DNA of 64,000 nt. It comes from Thermoplasmatota archaeon (GTDB lineage Archaea > Thermoplasmatota > Thermoplasmata > UBA10834). The stretch spans positions 32,001-96,000 of the forward strand of contig JBFMHR010000004.1 in assembly GCA_040751795.1 (NCBI GenBank). Direction: 5' to 3'. Below are positions 34,118 through 40,240 of the stretch, piece by piece. Every line of letters starts with the position of its first letter. Position 1 is the stretch's first letter. The notes under the pieces were generated by a model. That model saw only the letters and a list, made by a program, of their open reading frames with translations, was not told the DNA's origin and made no database searches. Both the position numbers and the translations under genes were made by a program.

Positions 34118-35578
34118 TTGTCCAAAGCGGTTTTCGACCCCCTGAGCAAGGAGCAGGAGGACGCGGTGCACCTGGAGTCCATCAGGATCCTGGAGCAGGT
34201 GGGCATCAAGGTGACGAGCCACAGGGTGCTCGCCATGCTGAAGGAGAAGGGCGCGGTCGTGGACGACCGGAGCCAGGTCGCCCGGCTCTCGGAGGCGATG
34301 GTGGAGGAGGCCCTCTCGAAGGCGCCGAAGGAGTTCGTGATGGCCGCCAGGGACCCGCGCTGGGACCTGTCCCTCCCCGCGACCAGCAGGGTCTACGGGG
34401 TCAACGACGGCCAGCCCACCGACGTCTGGGACATGGACGCCCAGGTGAAGCGGAAGTCGACCGCCCGCGACCTCGTGGACCTCACCCTCGTGTGCGACGC
34501 GATGCCGGAGGTGGACCTGTACTGGCCCGAGGTGGTCGCCACCGACCTCCCCCCGGACGTCTCCAACAGCCACGAGTTCGTGGCGTCGCTCTTCAACACG
34601 GGCAAGCACATCCAGCACGGCGCGGGGTCGGTCGAGGACGCGAGGTTCCTGATCGACGCGGCCGCAGCGGTCGTCGGGTCGGAGAAGGACCTGGCCAAGA
34701 GGCCCATCATCTCGATCACGCACACGCCCATCACGCCACTGAGGTACGAGGAGGGGGACATCGAGGCCGCGGTGGAGTTCGCCCTCGCAGGACTCCCCGT
34801 CGTGCACCTCTCGATGGCCATCTCGGGCTCCGTCGCCCCGGTGACGCTGGCGGGCACGGTCGCCCTGGTGAACGCGGAGAACCTGGCGGGATTCGTGATC
34901 TCCCAGGCCGCCAAGGCCGGCGCGCCCGTCCTGTACAGCTCCGAGTCCGGCCCGATGGACATGAAGACCGGCGTGTTCCTCTCCGGCTCGACCGAGGGCG
35001 CCCTCATCAACTCGGCGGGGTGCCAGATGGCGCGCAGGTACCGGATGCCCTCGCAGGTCGGCGGCACCGCCGCATCGGGGTGCAGGCCGGGGTACGAGGT
35101 CGGCTACCAGAAGGCCATCAGCGGGCTCCTCCCGGTCATGGCGGGCGCGGACCAGGTCGTAGGCATAGGCGGCTTCGAGCGCTCGGGCTGCGAGTCCGTC
35201 GAGCAGGTCGTCATGGACTGCGAGCTCTGGAGGAACATCCTCCGCGCGTGGAGGGGCATCGACGTCGGGAGGGAGACCCTCGCCTTCGACGCCATCTCCA
35301 GGGTGGGCCCGGGCGGCTACTTCATGAAGGACGTCCACACCCTCAGGCACTTCAGGAGGGAGAACCTCCTGCCCAGGATCGCCATGCTCCCGCCGCCCCA
35401 GGACTCCGCCGAGGAGCCCATCAGGGTTGCGGCCCGCAGGGAGGCCAAGAGGATCCTCGCCGATCACAGACCGCCGCCGATCGAGAAAGGCGCCGCCGAC
35501 GAGGTCAAGGCCATTCTGAGGAGGTACGACGAGGCGACCATCAAGGCGGCCGTCCCGACGGACTACCTCAGGTACTGA
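34118..35578 (+). CDS. Second MttB-superfamily methyltransferase, non-pyrrolysine
   Basis: NTGKH, PITPL, APVTLAGTVALVNAENLAG and VGPGGYF...HT; TTG start with AGGAGG SD; no in-frame TAG. Confidence 0.87.
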   Translation: MSKAVFDPLSKEQEDAVHLESIRILEQVGIKVTSHRVLAMLKEKGAVVDDRSQVARLSEAMVEEALSKAPKEFVMAARDPRWDLSLPATSRVYGVNDGQPTDVWDMDAQVKRKSTARDLVDLTLVCDAMPEVDLYWPEVVATDLPPDVSNSHEFVASLFNTGKHIQHGAGSVEDARFLIDAAAAVVGSEKDLAKRPIISITHTPITPLRYEEGDIEAAVEFALAGLPVVHLSMAISGSVAPVTLAGTVALVNAENLAGFVISQAAKAGAPVLYSSESGPMDMKTGVFLSGSTEGALINSAGCQMARRYRMPSQVGGTAASGCRPGYEVGYQKAISGLLPVMAGADQVVGIGGFERSGCESVEQVVMDCELWRNILRAWRGIDVGRETLAFDAISRVGPGGYFMKDVHTLRHFRRENLLPRIAMLPPPQDSAEEPIRVAARREAKRILADHRPPPIEKGAADEVKAILRRYDEATIKAAVPTDYLRY

Positions 35579-35649: not shown

Positions 35650-36768
35650 ATGGGCTTCTCCGATGGGTCAGGGTACGACAGGTCGCTGAGGGCGGGGGCG
35701 AGGGCGTGCGTGGACGACGTCCTCGGCCTGAAGAAGGGCGAGACGCTGCTGGTCATAACCAACCCGAACCGCGAGGTCCGGGAGATCTCCATGGCCATAT
35801 TCGACGCCGCCGAGGGGGCGGGCGCGTCCCCCGTTGTGGCTTTCCAGCCGGAGAAGGGCCAGTTCGACTTCACCGAGGCGTCCATAGTCGCTGCGATGCG
35901 GGCGGAGCCGGACGCCATACTCTCCATGAGCGCGGACAGGCTGGGCAAGGACAGGGTCGGGCTCCAGAAGGGCTACAAGGGGAAGAGGAAGTACAACGAC
36001 TACTTCGAGCTCCTCTACGAGGAGAAGAAGTCGAGGGCCTTCTGGTCCCCGGGGATCACCAAGGACATGTTCAGGCGGACGGTCCCGATCGACTACACGA
36101 GGCTGAGGTCGGACTGCAGGCGGCTCGTCAAGCTGCTGGCCGCGTCCTCCGAGGCCAGGGTCACGGCGCCGGGAGGGACCGACATCCGCATCGGCGTCAA
36201 GGGCAGGAAGGCCCGGCCCGACGACGGGGACTTCAGGAGGCCCGGCGCGTCCGGGAACGTCCCGTCGGGAGAGGTGTACGTGTCGCCCGCGCTGGGCACC
36301 GCCCAGGGCGTCATCGCGTTCGACGGTTCCATGGTCCTCAACGAGGGCGAGGTCGTGATCAGGACGCCCATAGTCGCCGAGGTCGAGGGCGGGTTCATCA
36401 CCGCGATCTCCGGGAGGTCTGAGGCCGACAGGCTCAGGGCCTCTATAGCCTCCGCCCGGTCCAAGACGAGGAAGATGGTCTCCCAGGGCCTCCTCCCGAG
36501 GAAGAGCCTCGAGTCCTACTCCAGGAACGCCTCGTCGATAGGGGAGCTGGGGATAGGGCTCAACAGGCGCGCGAGGATCGTCGCGAACATGCTCGAGGAC
36601 GAGAAGGTCTACGGGACGTGCCACTTCGCCGTGGGCAGCAACTACGACGGGGACGCGGAGGCGCTGATCCACCTGGACGGGATAGTCAAGAGGCCGACCA
36701 TCACCCTGGTCTCCCACTCCGGCAAGGAGACGGTAGTGATGGAGTCCGGGAAGCTGAGCTGGGACTGA
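35650..36768 (+). CDS. Aminopeptidase, M29 (AmpT-like) family
   Basis: NVPSGEVY, IGELGIGLN, EDEKVYGTCHFAVG and HLD motifs; this is the C-terminal part of the 34492 ORF. Confidence 0.85.
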   Translation: MGFSDGSGYDRSLRAGARACVDDVLGLKKGETLLVITNPNREVREISMAIFDAAEGAGASPVVAFQPEKGQFDFTEASIVAAMRAEPDAILSMSADRLGKDRVGLQKGYKGKRKYNDYFELLYEEKKSRAFWSPGITKDMFRRTVPIDYTRLRSDCRRLVKLLAASSEARVTAPGGTDIRIGVKGRKARPDDGDFRRPGASGNVPSGEVYVSPALGTAQGVIAFDGSMVLNEGEVVIRTPIVAEVEGGFITAISGRSEADRLRASIASARSKTRKMVSQGLLPRKSLESYSRNASSIGELGIGLNRRARIVANMLEDEKVYGTCHFAVGSNYDGDAEALIHLDGIVKRPTITLVSHSGKETVVMESGKLSWD

Positions 36769-36805
36769 GAGAAGGTTTAACTGCAGGCCCTCACTTCCGA
36801 GACGC

Positions 36806-37642
36806 ATGGAGGAGCGGGTCCTGCCGGGCGCGGCGGACCAGGACAGGTTCGACAGGTCCAGGAGGGTCGGATGGCTCGACCTCGAGTCGGTCTTCCGGTC
36901 CAGGGTCCTCATGCTCGGGGCGGGCGCCCTCGGCAACGAGGTCGCCAAGTGCCTCGCGCTCTCCGGCTTCAGGAGGGTCACCGTCGTGGACATGGACCAC
37001 GTCGTCGGCTCGAACCTGAACAGGTGCCTCTTCTTCACGTCGGAGGACGCGACCGCCCGCAGCAGCAAGGCGGAGGTCGTGGCCAGGGGCATCGAGCGGC
37101 TCTCCCCGGAGGCCAGGGCGAGGGCCATCGTGGGGAGGCTCGAGGACATCCCGGACGGCCTCTACCGGGAGTTCGACGTCGTCGTGGGTTGCCTCGACAA
37201 CATAGGCGCCAGGGTACACGCGAACTCCCGCGCCTACATGGCCGGGAGGCCGTACATAGACGGGGGCATGGAGGGCTTCTCCGGGAAGGTGATGGTCTGC
37301 CTCCCGCCGGACGGGCCGTGCGTCCAGTGCGGGATGAACAGGTCCCACGCGAGGGTCGCCGGGCTCAGGTTCAGCTGCACGGGCAAGGGGGTGGTGTTCC
37401 ACGAGCCGAGGCTGGCCGCGGAGATCACGACCACCAGCGTGGTGTCGGCGGTGATGGTCAGGGAGTGCCTGAAGGTGGTCTCGGGCAGGGGTGACACGGC
37501 CTTGAGGAACACGCTCTACTACGACGGGCAGAGGAACGTGGCGGAGGAGCTCGAGGTCCCCCTCGACCCGAGGTGCCCGAACCACCCGGCGAAGGTGCTA
37601 CAGGTATCCGAAAACCATATAACATCAGGCTCTGTCCAGTAG
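36806..37642 (+). CDS. E1-like ubiquitin/Ubl-activating enzyme (ThiF/MoeB superfamily)
   Basis: DRFDRS, GAGALG, DMDHV..SNLNR, CLDN..AR; Zn ligands CVQC (172/175) and CPNH (257/260); candidate catalytic Cys191 in RFSCT. Confidence 0.9.
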   Translation: MEERVLPGAADQDRFDRSRRVGWLDLESVFRSRVLMLGAGALGNEVAKCLALSGFRRVTVVDMDHVVGSNLNRCLFFTSEDATARSSKAEVVARGIERLSPEARARAIVGRLEDIPDGLYREFDVVVGCLDNIGARVHANSRAYMAGRPYIDGGMEGFSGKVMVCLPPDGPCVQCGMNRSHARVAGLRFSCTGKGVVFHEPRLAAEITTTSVVSAVMVRECLKVVSGRGDTALRNTLYYDGQRNVAEELEVPLDPRCPNHPAKVLQVSENHITSGSVQ

Positions 37643-37655
37643 GCAGGTGGTCGCC

Positions 37656-37895
37656 ATGACGTTCAGGCTCAAGGTGAAGAATGCCGAGACGGGGGCGACG
37701 GTGGAGATGGAGCTGGACGACGACAACACCGTCGACGAGATGATCGAGAGCGCTGCCACGTTCTGGAACAAGGACATGGGCGCGTACGTGCTCAGGAAGG
37801 GCAAGAAGGTCCTCCGGGGCGGGTCCACGCTCAAGGAGTCCGGCGTGATGGCCGAGGACGTGCTGGAGCTCATCCCCGACCCCGAGGGCGGATAG
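37656..37895 (+). CDS. Ubiquitin-like protein (79 aa) with free C-terminal Gly-Gly
   Basis: Beta-grasp-like pattern FRLKVKN...VEMEL...TVDEM...GKKVL...STLKESGV...LELI; ends PEGG-stop; AGGTGG SD. Confidence 0.85.
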   Translation: MTFRLKVKNAETGATVEMELDDDNTVDEMIESAATFWNKDMGAYVLRKGKKVLRGGSTLKESGVMAEDVLELIPDPEGG

Positions 37896-37900
37896 TCCGG

Positions 37901-38422
37901 ATGTCCCTGCCGATAGACGTCCTGAGGCTGCGCATCAAGAACGAGATCGACGCATGCCAGCGAGAGCTGCGCCACCACATCTCCGTCTCGGACCCGACGC
38001 TCAGCCGCTTCCCCATCCAGATCAACGTTCATCTCCTCCGCGTCCCCGGCCCCGCCTGGGAGGACGGGAGGGTTGTGCACCTCTTCGTCCACAAGTTCGC
38101 GCTCATCATAGGCGAGGACTACCCGATGGAGAAGCCGATCGTCAAGTGGATGACGCCCATATTCCACCCCAACATCATGCCCCCCGAGGACGGGGGCTAC
38201 GTCTGCACCAAGCTCCTCGAGAACTGGGACCTCAGCTCGAGCCTGTCGGCCTTCATAATCGGCCTAGAGTCCCTGCTCTCCAACCCGAACCCCGGGAACC
38301 CGTTCGGCTCGGACGCGTGCACGCGTGCGGCCGCCTACTTCAACAGGAACAGGTACTCGCCCCCCTCGCAGATGGACCAGTCGGACAGGAGGGTCAGGAT
38401 CGTGGGGGCGTCCCATGGCTAG
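37901..38422 (+). CDS. E2 ubiquitin-conjugating enzyme (UBC fold)
   Basis: RLRIKNEI N-helix; EDYPMEKPIVKWMTPIFHPNI; GYVC102; W...SL...LESLLSNPNPGNP. Confidence 0.92.
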   Translation: MSLPIDVLRLRIKNEIDACQRELRHHISVSDPTLSRFPIQINVHLLRVPGPAWEDGRVVHLFVHKFALIIGEDYPMEKPIVKWMTPIFHPNIMPPEDGGYVCTKLLENWDLSSSLSAFIIGLESLLSNPNPGNPFGSDACTRAAAYFNRNRYSPPSQMDQSDRRVRIVGASHG

Positions 38423-39059
38423 GCCGAAGGTGGTGAGGGAGACCAGGCGGAGCCCGGAGGAGAGGCGCCCGCCGGCCGCGGGCTCGCTGCGCCCTCACGG
38501 GTGGCTGTCCCCGGACTCCTTGGCCGCGTACGAGGAGGCTCTGTCCTCCGGGGCACCATTCCCCCTGTACATCTCCTCGCACGCCGAGGCGCTGATGCGC
38601 TCCCACGCCGAGAGGGAGGCGCCGCGGAGGCTCGAGGTGATGGGATTCATGCTCGGGGAGGTCGCCTCCTGGGAGGGCTCGGTGTACGCGACAGTGAGGG
38701 ACGCCGCCTCGACGGACCTGAAGAGCAGCCCCTCGAAGGTCAGGTTCGACCGCGACGCCTTCCCGAAGCTCTTCGGGGACATGGACGGCTCGGGCTTCGA
38801 CTACATCATCGTCGGGTGGTACCACTCCCACCCCGGCCACACATGCTTCCTCTCGAGGACGGACCTGGAGACCCAGAGGACCATGTTCGACCAGCCCTAC
38901 CACTCCGCCCTCGTGATAGACCCCCTGAGCGAGGACGTCAAGGCGTTCAGGCTCGCCGGCCGGGGGTACGAGGAGGTCCCCTTCGCCGTCACCGACGCGA
39001 TCTCCCCCGCCAGGCGGGTGGGGGGAAGGACCCGGAGGCTCAGGGCGGGCCAATCCTGA
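38415..39059 (+). CDS. JAB/MPN+ (JAMM) metallo-isopeptidase, Rpn11/CSN5-like
   Basis: EVMGFMLG, IVGWYHSHPGHTCFLSRTDLETQ and ALVIDP; overlaps the E2 stop by 8 nt. Confidence 0.92.
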   Translation: MARPKVVRETRRSPEERRPPAAGSLRPHGWLSPDSLAAYEEALSSGAPFPLYISSHAEALMRSHAEREAPRRLEVMGFMLGEVASWEGSVYATVRDAASTDLKSSPSKVRFDRDAFPKLFGDMDGSGFDYIIVGWYHSHPGHTCFLSRTDLETQRTMFDQPYHSALVIDPLSEDVKAFRLAGRGYEEVPFAVTDAISPARRVGGRTRRLRAGQS

Positions 39060-39106: not shown

Positions 39107-40240
39107 ATGGCCCCTGGATGTACGCCCGCCCTCCTCATCGCGCTCGCGTTCCTGTCCATGTGTGCCTCGGGGCTCGCCGCAGGCGAGGACGGGGACGACT
39201 ATGCGATCTTCTACAGCGTCGACGACACGAAGGTCAGCATAGTCTCGGGCAACCTCACCGTGGCCGTCACCAGGGACTGGCCGAGGGTGCTCTTCTGGCA
39301 CTCGGATGACCCGTTCTCCCCCACCTTCGAGGTCGGTTTCCCGAAGCTCTACCTGTTCAACGACACCGACAGGGACGGCAGGTTCTGCAGGTCGGAGGCC
39401 GTCTACACCGTCTACCTCGACTCGAACCGGGTGGAGTGGAACCTCTCCTCGGTCTCGTTCGGCTACGAGGGCGAGCTTGGGGAGTCCATATCCTTCTCGA
39501 TGACCGCAAGGGCGAACGCCTTCAACGACACGCTCGACGCGCCCCCGGCCGTCGAGTCGTGGGCCAACGTGACGTTCTGGTTCAGGGTCGCCGAGAACAC
39601 GACCACCGTCGCCAACCCCGCCGGCTCGTACGGCCTGTCGGGGAAGACGGAGATGCTCGTCGACATGAGCATCGAGGTCACCAACAGGACTGAGTTCGAC
39701 GCGGTCGCCCTGGAGCGCTTCCTGCAGGGCGGGGGCACGACCGACATGTTCGAGATACTCGAGGACGGCCGGGACGGGGCCGTGAGCGCGGTGCTCTCTG
39801 GCAGGGTCGACGAGAGCGCCGGTGACGGGGACTTCACGAGGCCCCTGAACATGACGGACTCCGCAGTCCAGAGCATCGAGTTCGCGAAGGACGACGGCAC
39901 GGTCCAGGCGTTCTACAGCTGGGGCTCGGAGGCCGTGGACGCGAGCGGGTCCACGCCAGGGGTCCACCTCAACTCGTCGTGCTTCACGACCGGGGCCGGG
40001 CTCATCCTTCACTCCGTCGTGCCGCTGTCCAACGGGACCGCATCCATCTCGCACGACTCGAGCGTCGGCCTGGTCGAGGAGGGCTTCGTCGGGGCCATGA
40101 CGGACTGGATAAGGGAGCACGGCCTCGTGCTGGGGTCGGCAGCGGCCGTCGCCGCCGTGGCGGGCGTCGTCGCGCTGCACCTGGTCCTGAGGCGGAGGCG
40201 CTTCGGAGGGGAAGGCCCCGAGGAGAGAGGCGCCAAGTGA
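39107..40240 (+). CDS. Membrane-anchored secreted hypothetical protein
   Basis: Signal peptide; several N-x-S/T sequons; C-terminal TM followed by RRRR. Confidence 0.78.
   Translation: MAPGCTPALLIALAFLSMCASGLAAGEDGDDYAIFYSVDDTKVSIVSGNLTVAVTRDWPRVLFWHSDDPFSPTFEVGFPKLYLFNDTDRDGRFCRSEAVYTVYLDSNRVEWNLSSVSFGYEGELGESISFSMTARANAFNDTLDAPPAVESWANVTFWFRVAENTTTVANPAGSYGLSGKTEMLVDMSIEVTNRTEFDAVALERFLQGGGTTDMFEILEDGRDGAVSAVLSGRVDESAGDGDFTRPLNMTDSAVQSIEFAKDDGTVQAFYSWGSEAVDASGSTPGVHLNSSCFTTGAGLILHSVVPLSNGTASISHDSSVGLVEEGFVGAMTDWIREHGLVLGSAAAVAAVAGVVALHLVLRRRRFGGEGPEERGAK

Follow-up and report, generated by a model that had tools for sequence, protein, structure and literature searches.

A conserved E1-Ubl-E2-JAB operon points to a resident ubiquitin-like conjugation system in Thermoplasmatota

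Introduction

Eukaryote-like cascades of E1 activating and E2 conjugating enzymes in archaea are usually discussed for Caldiarchaeum and the Asgard archaea, none of which is easily grown. A 64,000-nucleotide stretch of a Thermoplasmatota genome (assembly GCA_040751795.1, contig JBFMHR010000004.1, positions 32,001 to 96,000; hereafter the window, with position 1 at its first letter) raises the question of whether such a cascade also belongs to this phylum and, if so, what it is for. At 36806-39059 the window carries four packed genes that were read, by a model working from the letters alone, as an E1, a ubiquitin-like protein (Ubl) ending in Gly-Gly, an E2 and a JAMM protease (JAB). This original prediction saw in them a self-contained, reversible protein-tagging system in a lineage not usually credited with one, with a resident function such as proteostasis or defence.

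We followed up this proposal computationally. The genes, their folds, their invariant catalytic residues, the conserved operon and its context, a promoter box, the co-occurrence of the parts and the existence of tailed modifier precursors are all established by computation. The explanation that fits them best is a resident, vertically inherited Ubl-conjugation operon of the eukaryotic and Caldiarchaeum type, which would serve housekeeping regulation or proteostasis and not phage defence or sulfur transfer. We put the probability of this reading at about 0.8.

Results

The four genes lie on the forward strand. The E1 gene (36806-37642; ThiF family, 278 residues, from the open reading frame (ORF) list and Pfam) is followed after 13 nucleotides by the gene for the ubiquitin-fold modifier (37656-37895), which encodes 79 residues from its ATG and ends ...ELIPDPEGG-stop; a GTG at 37647 is an alternative start that would add 3 residues to give 82. 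Five nucleotides further on begins the gene for the UBC-fold E2 (37901-38422; 173 residues, with a His-Pro-Asn (HPN) motif at H89-N91 and C102), whose end overlaps by 8 nucleotides the gene of an Rpn11-like JAMM/MPN+ metalloprotease (ATG at 38415, to 39059; 214 residues). The ORF coordinates thus agree with the packing first described. Hidden Markov model searches, proposed as the first check, placed the ThiF, UQ_con and JAB domains above the curated Pfam cut-offs, and in the source genome (2.05 Mb, 53 contigs, 92.8% complete) the cassette E2 and JAB are the single matches to UQ_con and to PF01398, respectively. GC content is flat over the window (0.61-0.70 in 2-kb steps), in keeping with the host-like composition noted from the letters.

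To judge whether the four genes belong together we scanned one genome per species and took the best 80 of 161 E2 relatives as a set of related loci. These come from Thermoplasmata/Thermoplasmatota metagenome-assembled genomes, the loci at about 50% identity being from Methanomassiliicoccales and Methanomassiliicoccus assemblies. E1, Ubl, E2 and JAB are adjacent in that order in 62 of the 80 loci, a recurrence that puts the four-gene set far beyond chance and answers the demand that the genes co-occur in related genomes. The remainder comprises two rearranged loci with all four genes, five cut by contig ends, three lone E2 paralogues and eight loci with Ubl-E2-JAB and no nearby E1. In each of five checked among these eight, an orthologous E1 (45-53% identity) is encoded elsewhere in the genome, and these distant E1s differ from the canonical ThiF of the same genomes (25-32% identity). 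Alignments of orthologues from the 80 loci held 66 E1, 68 Ubl, 81 E2 and 73 JAB sequences.

The E2 scored 54.7 bits on PF00179 (UQ_con; cut-off 27). All 81 sequences keep H89-P90-N91, C102, W109 and P129-N130, so the HPN and Cys on which the E2 assignment rested are present throughout. H64 and C140 are likewise invariant (81/81) and C19 nearly so (80/81); these three residues could form a metal site or a disulfide. An AlphaFold2 model built on the orthologue alignment (predicted local distance difference test (pLDDT) score 88) has the UBC fold and matched eukaryotic UBC enzymes with target-normalised template-modelling (TM) scores up to 0.73. Against PDB sequences, the best 60 of 250 matches (E up to 0.01) are all eukaryotic E2s, the top one at 2.1e-14. 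An E2 profile run against 1.84 billion representative sequences gave 5,838 matches at E up to 1e-3 and 31 at 1e-30 or better; ten E2-profile matches were looked up, and the one organism named was a rotifer.

The AlphaFold2 model of the Ubl, likewise built on its alignment (pLDDT 88.6), shows the beta-grasp order of strands and helix, and Foldseek superposed it on ubiquitin (TM 0.88), on SUMO and on the ubiquitin of Caldiarchaeum (TM 0.85), which substantiates the beta-grasp-like protein with a GG end that had been proposed. In 61 of 64 loci no other gene of the four is conserved as well as the Ubl, whose median identity is 73% versus 61% for E1, 61% for E2 and 50% for JAB. PDP[E/T]GG is present in all 68 orthologues. 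The stop codon follows GG directly in 41, and the other 27 carry 1-10 further residues (among them N, I, R, A, G, Q, NR, SR, KI, FSGPPY and RRLRREAGRR). A JAB gene adjoins 25 of these 27 tailed Ubls, and for the remaining two the locus stops at a contig edge. Such a pattern would be expected of a protease that exposes GG before activation, and the tails imply Ubl processing in those lineages. By its sequence the window's own Ubl is encoded in mature form, and trimming would be unnecessary; trypsin would leave on its targets a 19-residue remnant, ESGVMAEDVLELIPDPEGG, rather than diGly.

E2 and Ubl also travel together across the phylum. The same even sample of 401 genomes from 162 genera was used in both searches: 91 genomes, from 50 of the 162 genera, had the E2 and 89 had the Ubl, with both in 86, E2 only in five, Ubl only in three and neither in 307. 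All five E2-only genomes gave weak matches (E 2.4e-20 to 2.4e-6). We give these counts without a probability because related genomes are not independent; the co-occurrence anticipated for Thermoplasmatota is nevertheless plain in them.

The JAB scored 44.1 bits on PF01398 (cut-off 22.5), above its 31.1 bits on Prok-JAB. The complete JAMM motif predicted from the letters, E74 with H137-S-H139-x7-S147-x2-D150, is invariant in 73 of 73 sequences. Best PDB sequence matches were Rpn11 (8.5e-14), the Caldiarchaeum Rpn11 homologue 6fjv (2.6e-12) and then CSN5. We therefore assign it as a predicted deconjugase and, where Ubls are tailed, a predicted maturase. In one genus (g10; genomes G185, G233, G276 and G081, 98-99% complete) a search with the window's JAB found no counterpart in any of the four genomes. 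Its loci (L126-L129) have adjacent E1-Ubl-E2, and its Ubl, more divergent at 31-44% identity, ends exactly at GG in 4 of 4. An in-frame TGA in the E2 matches of this genus was considered as selenocysteine or decay, and both were rejected; it is the true stop of a shorter E2 that keeps the Cys. Some JAB orthologues are longer, at 533 and 629 residues, with an extra part of no clear family (among L059:1650-3248, L091:5527-7413 and L112:12149-13069). One member of this group has C-terminal hydrophobic segments resembling membrane anchors, and at L091 the E1 stands after JAB instead of first in the operon.

The E1 scored 160.3 bits on PF00899 (ThiF; cut-off 28.1). Invariant in all 66 sequences are the Gly-rich loop (G40/G43), N70, R73, K88, D131 and R136; the Zn ligands C172xxC175 and C257xxH260; and the candidate catalytic C191, within an S-C-T-G motif. 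The nucleotide-binding, Zn and candidate Cys motifs had all been read correctly, except that the second Zn motif is C257xxH260 and not CxxC. In MoeB-like E1s such as UbaA, ThiF and UBA5, the active Cys is found on a short loop that follows the first Zn motif. In a search of all PDB sequences the best matches are the eukaryotic UBA3, Uba1 and UBA2 (E1 subunits for NEDD8, ubiquitin and SUMO, at 5.8e-22 to 4e-21 and about 79-82 bits), with MoeB at 65.7 bits, ThiF at 64.2, bacterial BubCD at 30.8 and UBA5 at 2e-10. The C-terminus is not conserved across the 66-sequence alignment. A predicted E1-E2 complex scored 0.01 against a mark of 0.32, a value that counts neither for nor against binding. In the UFM1 pathway, UBA5 is likewise a small E1 without a separate Cys domain that uses a loop Cys and still charges a dedicated E2, UFC1. 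The cassette E1 resembles UBA5 in lacking a Cys domain, in having its candidate Cys on a loop after the adenylation core and in its dedicated E2. It has no recognisable UFC1-binding tail, however, and its partner E2 has the HPN motif that UFC1 lacks.

The size of this E1 invites another explanation, in which the cassette is a sulfur-carrier or E1-only system of the small archaeal modifier protein (SAMP) kind, the Ubl being thiocarboxylated or conjugated by the E1 and the E2-like protein acting as a non-catalytic partner. E1-only sampylation is established in archaea, and the haloarchaeal system (SAMPs, UbaA, HvJAMM1) shares with the window a MoeB-sized Zn/loop-Cys E1, a GG-ended beta-grasp protein and a tag-reversing JAMM. 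The cassette E1 aligns over its full length with the 249-residue MoeB and scores 82-108 bits on the NCBIfam MoeB, ThiF and UbaA models, and the JAB scores 36.2 bits on the NCBI desampylase model. Those scores are nonetheless far under the cut-offs (UbaA 81.9 versus 450, MoeB 94.1 versus 449, desampylase 36.2 versus 130), and the Ubl had no match to ThiS Pfam models at E up to 1. Sampylation and the MoaD/ThiS systems have no E2, and a non-catalytic partner would not require the Cys102 and HPN that are invariant in 81 of 81 E2s. E2 and Ubl also co-occur almost perfectly in the 401 genomes. Furthermore, the source genome encodes another protein of the ThiF family, which scores 258 bits on PF00899 and 238-246 bits on the NCBI MoeB, ThiF and UbaA models, and has three ThiS/MoaD genes away from the cassette, so that judged from these sequences a separate canonical sulfur-carrier set exists elsewhere in the genome. 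We consider a sulfur-carrier or E1-only role very unlikely, and continue with E1-E2 conjugation.

Is the cassette resident? The E2 is present in 32 of 41 close genomes, and its identity to the window's E2 falls with kinship, from 75-88% within the genus through 65-78% in the family and 63-71% in the order to 32-59% in the class, as vertical descent would have it. An orthologue 50% identical to the window's E2 occurs in the cultured methanogen Methanomassiliicoccus luminyensis. Downstream genes, examined within 5 kb, are also held in place: SIS in 59 of 81 sources, a TIM-barrel gene (AP_endonuc_2) in 55, and the ribosomal proteins L18e, L13 and S9 in 42, 40 and 39. They are kept as well in 16-27 of the 43 most distant loci, which corroborates the housekeeping setting first described and extends it across the related loci. 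No defence or mobile genes were seen in the flanks examined, and no link to genes of the ESCRT endosomal sorting complex or to ubiquitin E2 variants (UEV). From these sequences the operon is, in our assessment, resident and vertically inherited.

Upstream of E1, the window has a TATA-box-like TTTAAC at 36776-36781 on the forward strand (-30 to -25 relative to the ATG). An A/T-rich pentamer occurs at -40 to -18 of E1 in 51 of 62 orthologous loci. Control windows of the same size held one in 0 of 62 loci when placed within the coding sequence of E1 and in 4 of 62 when placed further upstream. TTTAAC is thus the probable archaeal TATA box of a leaderless or near-leaderless operon transcript. A promoter scan returned 0 sites, and two terminator-like ones versus 1.9 expected; its patterns are those of bacterial sigma-70 and are uninformative for an archaeon.

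Other neighbours are more local. Upstream of the operon the window has an MttB-family methyltransferase gene (34118-35578; 259.9 bits, uninterrupted from a TTG start with no in-frame stop) and an M29 aminopeptidase-like gene (35650-36768; 39.3 bits). Both are kept upstream within the family only (66-90% and 57-86% identity) and not in distant loci. Downstream, 39107-40240 encodes a 377-residue predicted type-I membrane protein with no Pfam match, which carries a signal-like segment at its N-terminus, a hydrophobic one at its C-terminus and a short basic tail and is found 3' of JAB in family-level relatives only (27-55% identity). We considered this protein as a RING-less relative of the membrane-anchored finger proteins described below, and rejected the idea for want of similarity.

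Residence bears directly on a defence role, in which the operon would be an antiviral module of the bacterial Bil/Bub/CBASS Cap2-Cap3 kind that attaches its Ubl to viral proteins or to an immune effector. Bacterial four-gene Ubl-E1-E2-JAB operons, described in the cited part of Iyer, Burroughs and Aravind (2006, PMC1779556) and in some cases antiphage, have the same four parts, need no E3 ligase gene in the operon and have an E1 without eukaryote-type inserts. In PADLOC the cassette E1 partially matches "E1-E2" models, at no more than 47.8 bits, and the JAB matches weakly; the phyletic pattern of the E2 is patchy. The PADLOC matches of the E1, however, cover only the generic ThiF core, and 0 PADLOC families match the E2 and 0 the Ubl. 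In Pfam the E2 matches UQ_con and no Prok-E2 family, being a classical E2 with HPN and not of the Prok-E2/Bil type; BubCD is only a distant match of the E1 (30.8 bits), and the NCBIfam 6A-MBL cap2_3 model gave 40.8 bits against a cut-off of 320. Best matches among eukaryotic and Caldiarchaeum proteins, together with low PADLOC and NCBIfam scores, thus place the parts with the eukaryotic and Caldiarchaeum type and with neither the Bil/CBASS nor the SAMP type. The setting differs too: the locus is fixed by L18e/L13/S9 and metabolic genes, outside any defence island, its divergence follows kinship and its composition is host-like, and two peptide patterns run on viral contigs returned 11 matches, none of them a relative. 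A resident regulatory or proteostasis role is favoured over defence, which we regard as improbable, by the operon's constant housekeeping setting, by its vertical descent and by the lack of relatives in the viral contigs scanned. Of the "proteostasis or defence" first suggested, the resident function therefore stands, and defence is disfavoured by the ribosomal-gene neighbours and the lack of a PADLOC match for the E2.

We then asked where a resident cascade might find its E3 ligases. On the source genome a canonical RING-H2/HC regular expression had 0 matches, and PF13639 (zf-RING_2) had only two, at 18 bits. An initial reading of these results as "no RING" was rejected, as the two weak matches are a C4HC3 variant with the shared pattern C-x2-C-x12-C-x-C-x4-H-x2-C-x6-C-x2-C. 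The source-genome fingers belong to a giant protein on contig C1, a zinc-ribbon-trailed protein on C51 and a third weak match on C12. The giant (G000:C1:145018-149550, also L101:1040-5551, outside the window; 1503 residues) consists almost entirely of helical repeats, followed by a CARDB-like beta domain (23.8 bits) and the C-terminal C4HC3 finger. On Prok-RING_1 (PF14446; curated cut-off 29.1 bits) this finger scored 35.2 bits when isolated (57 residues), 33.4 when the genome was scanned and 28.6 in the context of the full-length protein, values on both sides of the cut-off. The class repeatedly shows frames of 1,500-1,650 residues that carry this finger, some of them in genomes without a detected E2.

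In other classes such fingers stand beside the cassette. Among 14 loci chosen from genomes with E2 matches, of which four were too short to assess, a same-strand finger gene directly adjoins the cassette in 5 of 10 loci, representing 4 of 8 families. Genome G043 has a membrane-anchored small finger, E1, a 3,155-residue giant finger, Ubl, E2 and JAB in succession, and G055, of the same family, a giant finger and then Ubl-E2-JAB. A membrane-anchored finger precedes E1-Ubl-E2-JAB in G107 and E1-Ubl-E2 in G076, and in G199 a finger adjoins two E2 paralogues and JAB. The finger proteins adjoining these cassettes are single-pass membrane proteins or one giant scaffold. Their fingers scored 26.2 and 27.7 bits on Prok-RING_1, or matched only zf-RING_2 at 17.6-24.2 bits. 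At E up to 1, all ten fingers used in a profile matched zf-RING_2 and nine of ten matched Prok-RING_1, and the ten-finger profile found eukaryotic RING E3 ligases in PDB, RNF24 best (8.9e-5), then RNF165/Arkadia, EL5, CNOT4, RLIM and AMFR. We regard the RING-like fingers as candidate E3s and not as demonstrated parts. The description of the system as self-contained is consequently not borne out by these results, with RING-like candidate E3s in the source genome and, in four other families, beside the cassette.

Two members of the phylum with large genomes (G199, contigs C27, C47, C84, C237 and C462, and G166; 3.8-5.5 Mb) have 5-7 E2 matches each, partly inside open frames of 552, 692 and 1,057 residues, and 6-14 zf-RING_2-like matches each versus none in 14 control genomes. 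These counts suggest an expanded ubiquitin-like network in these lineages.

The fingers also bear on the breadth of the system, which might be a dedicated modifier of one or a few substrates, such as a membrane or ribosome-associated factor. That the source genome has a single E2, a single Ubl and no expansion of E3s would suit such a role, as would the fixed position adjoining ribosomal-protein genes, and the membrane-anchored or giant-scaffold fingers beside cassettes in other classes suggest localised action. On the other hand, nothing points to a particular substrate, and the neighbouring genes vary between families. We think so restricted a role improbable; it would in any case be a narrower version of the housekeeping conjugation proposed here and not a contradiction of it.

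Discussion

From known E1, E2 and JAMM chemistry and the invariant residues described above, the following scheme can be proposed for the housekeeping conjugation system. The operon would be transcribed as E1-Ubl-E2-JAB from its own TATA-box promoter. The Ubl would be made with a free C-terminal Gly-Gly, the JAMM protease first trimming the tail in tailed relatives. The small E1, probably a MoeB-like dimer, would adenylate Gly79 with ATP and probably take the Ubl onto Cys191, in the loop after the first Zn motif, as a thioester. Next the E2 would receive the Ubl on its Cys102 by transthiolation, with the aid of the HPN motif, and would transfer it to lysines of cellular proteins, either directly or with RING-like proteins encoded elsewhere. 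Finally, the Rpn11-like JAMM protease would remove the tag.

Several results weigh against this interpretation. The Ubl reaches only 17.5 bits on the Pfam ubiquitin model, under the cut-off of 25.4. The E1 has neither an inserted separate catalytic-Cys domain nor a ubiquitin-fold domain, and only 33 residues, holding the single invariant Cys C191, lie between C175 and T209. No E3 or RING gene is found in or beside the window's operon, and a finger gene within 5 kb of the cassette occurs in 0 of the 80 related loci. Nor does the finger family track the E2, an idea that was rejected on finding it in 39 of 41 relatives, including five without a detected E2. The system is dispensable in evolution, with only 91 of 401 genomes having it, and four well-sampled families are empty or nearly empty of the E2 (0/36, 0/26, 0/24 and 1/53), from which it appears to have been lost often; absence in these counts means not found with the query used. 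Reversibility does not seem to be universal, given the g10 genus in which no JAB was detected. Last, we infer every chemical step, the targets and the physiological role from the computed features.

The nearest known system is that of Caldiarchaeum subterraneum (Aigarchaeota), whose operon, as given in the cited parts of PMC3082918, PMC5654768 and PMC6043591, encodes ubiquitin, E1, E2, a small RING E3 and Rpn11. Both systems have a GG-ended ubiquitin-fold modifier, a ThiF-type E1, a UBC E2 that carries HPN and Cys, and an Rpn11-like JAMM. Caldiarchaeum also supplies some of the closest solved relatives of the window's proteins, in its Rpn11 homologue (2.6e-12) and its ubiquitin (TM 0.85). Caldiarchaeum pro-ubiquitin has its GG exposed by its Rpn11 (cited part of PMC5654768), and a post-GG-tailed precursor is found here in many orthologues. 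In contrast to Caldiarchaeum, the window's operon has no RING gene, its order is E1-Ubl-E2-JAB, and its Ubl, as encoded, would need no trimming. The Caldiarchaeum E1 has a catalytic-Cys domain of roughly 60 residues, according to the section of a review cited here (PMC11354881), whereas the window's E1 is MoeB-sized and lacks it. The Thermoplasmatota cassette also belongs to a different phylum and occupies a fixed locus across many families. With the Asgard and eukaryotic systems it shares an E1 adenylation core, an E2 and an Rpn11-type protease that score best against eukaryotic proteins, and a RING-like finger profile that matches eukaryotic RING E3s. It differs from them in having a single E2, a minimal and not multi-domain E1 and no ESCRT/UEV link seen in its flanks.

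Parts of this system have been recorded before. Many relatives of the E2, including that of M. luminyensis, already bear the NCBI/JGI names "ubiquitin-conjugating enzyme E2" or "ubiquitin-protein ligase". Fort et al. (2015, PMC4453063), in the part cited, place an Rpn11 orthologue of M. luminyensis beside that of Caldiarchaeum and do not mention its neighbours there. The cited part of a 2023 preprint (10.1101/2023.07.25.550441) includes non-Asgard archaeal PF00179 proteins in an E2/UEV tree, where "Ca. Thermoplasmatota E2" branches deep within the archaeal clade. Euryarchaeota are represented by one marine group II genome only in the sampling described in the cited part of Grau-Bove et al. (2015, PMC4327156), and the sections cited of Koonin (2015, PMC4571572) and of the 2024 review (PMC11354881) treat Caldiarchaeum and Asgard only. 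In the full texts searched we found no account of the Thermoplasmatota four-gene operon, its conservation, its tailed precursors or the adjacent RING-like genes; supplementary tables of Grau-Bove et al. (2015), Fort et al. (2015) and the 2023 preprint may nonetheless list the genes. The novelty supposed at the outset accordingly survives for the operon as described and not for the E2s, which were already named, or for the Rpn11 orthologue and the E2 clade, which had been noted. Taken as a whole, the sequence evidence gives good support for a real and functional system. Its evolutionary reach is moderately novel, and the lead on E3s is new.

A bolder proposal can be put forward tentatively, as one that we think possible and still more likely wrong than right. 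An ancestral Thermoplasmatota system may have had five parts, a RING-E3, E1, Ubl, E2 and Rpn11, the E3s being C4HC3 fingers on single-pass membrane proteins or on a giant helical-repeat scaffold of 1,500-3,100 residues. In the window's lineage the E3 genes would then have moved off the operon, and a full cascade built on a minimal E1 would be old and widespread outside Asgard and TACK. If that were true, a cascade with a minimal, MoeB-sized E1 could plausibly stand midway from E1-only tagging to the cascade of eukaryotes, and a RING-E3 cascade would be open to study in culturable Methanomassiliicoccus.

Independently of that proposal, the operon bears on the age of the E1-E2-Rpn11 core in archaeal evolution. 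It opens two questions: how a MoeB-sized E1 that has neither a Cys domain nor a ubiquitin-fold domain may charge a UBC E2, and whether E3s of the RING type became partners of such a cascade early. On the reading preferred here, an E1-E2-Rpn11-type core would be an old, vertically inherited feature of a euryarchaeal phylum, kept at a fixed locus, and the orthologue in M. luminyensis would make that organism a tractable one for learning what a minimal prokaryotic ubiquitin system does.

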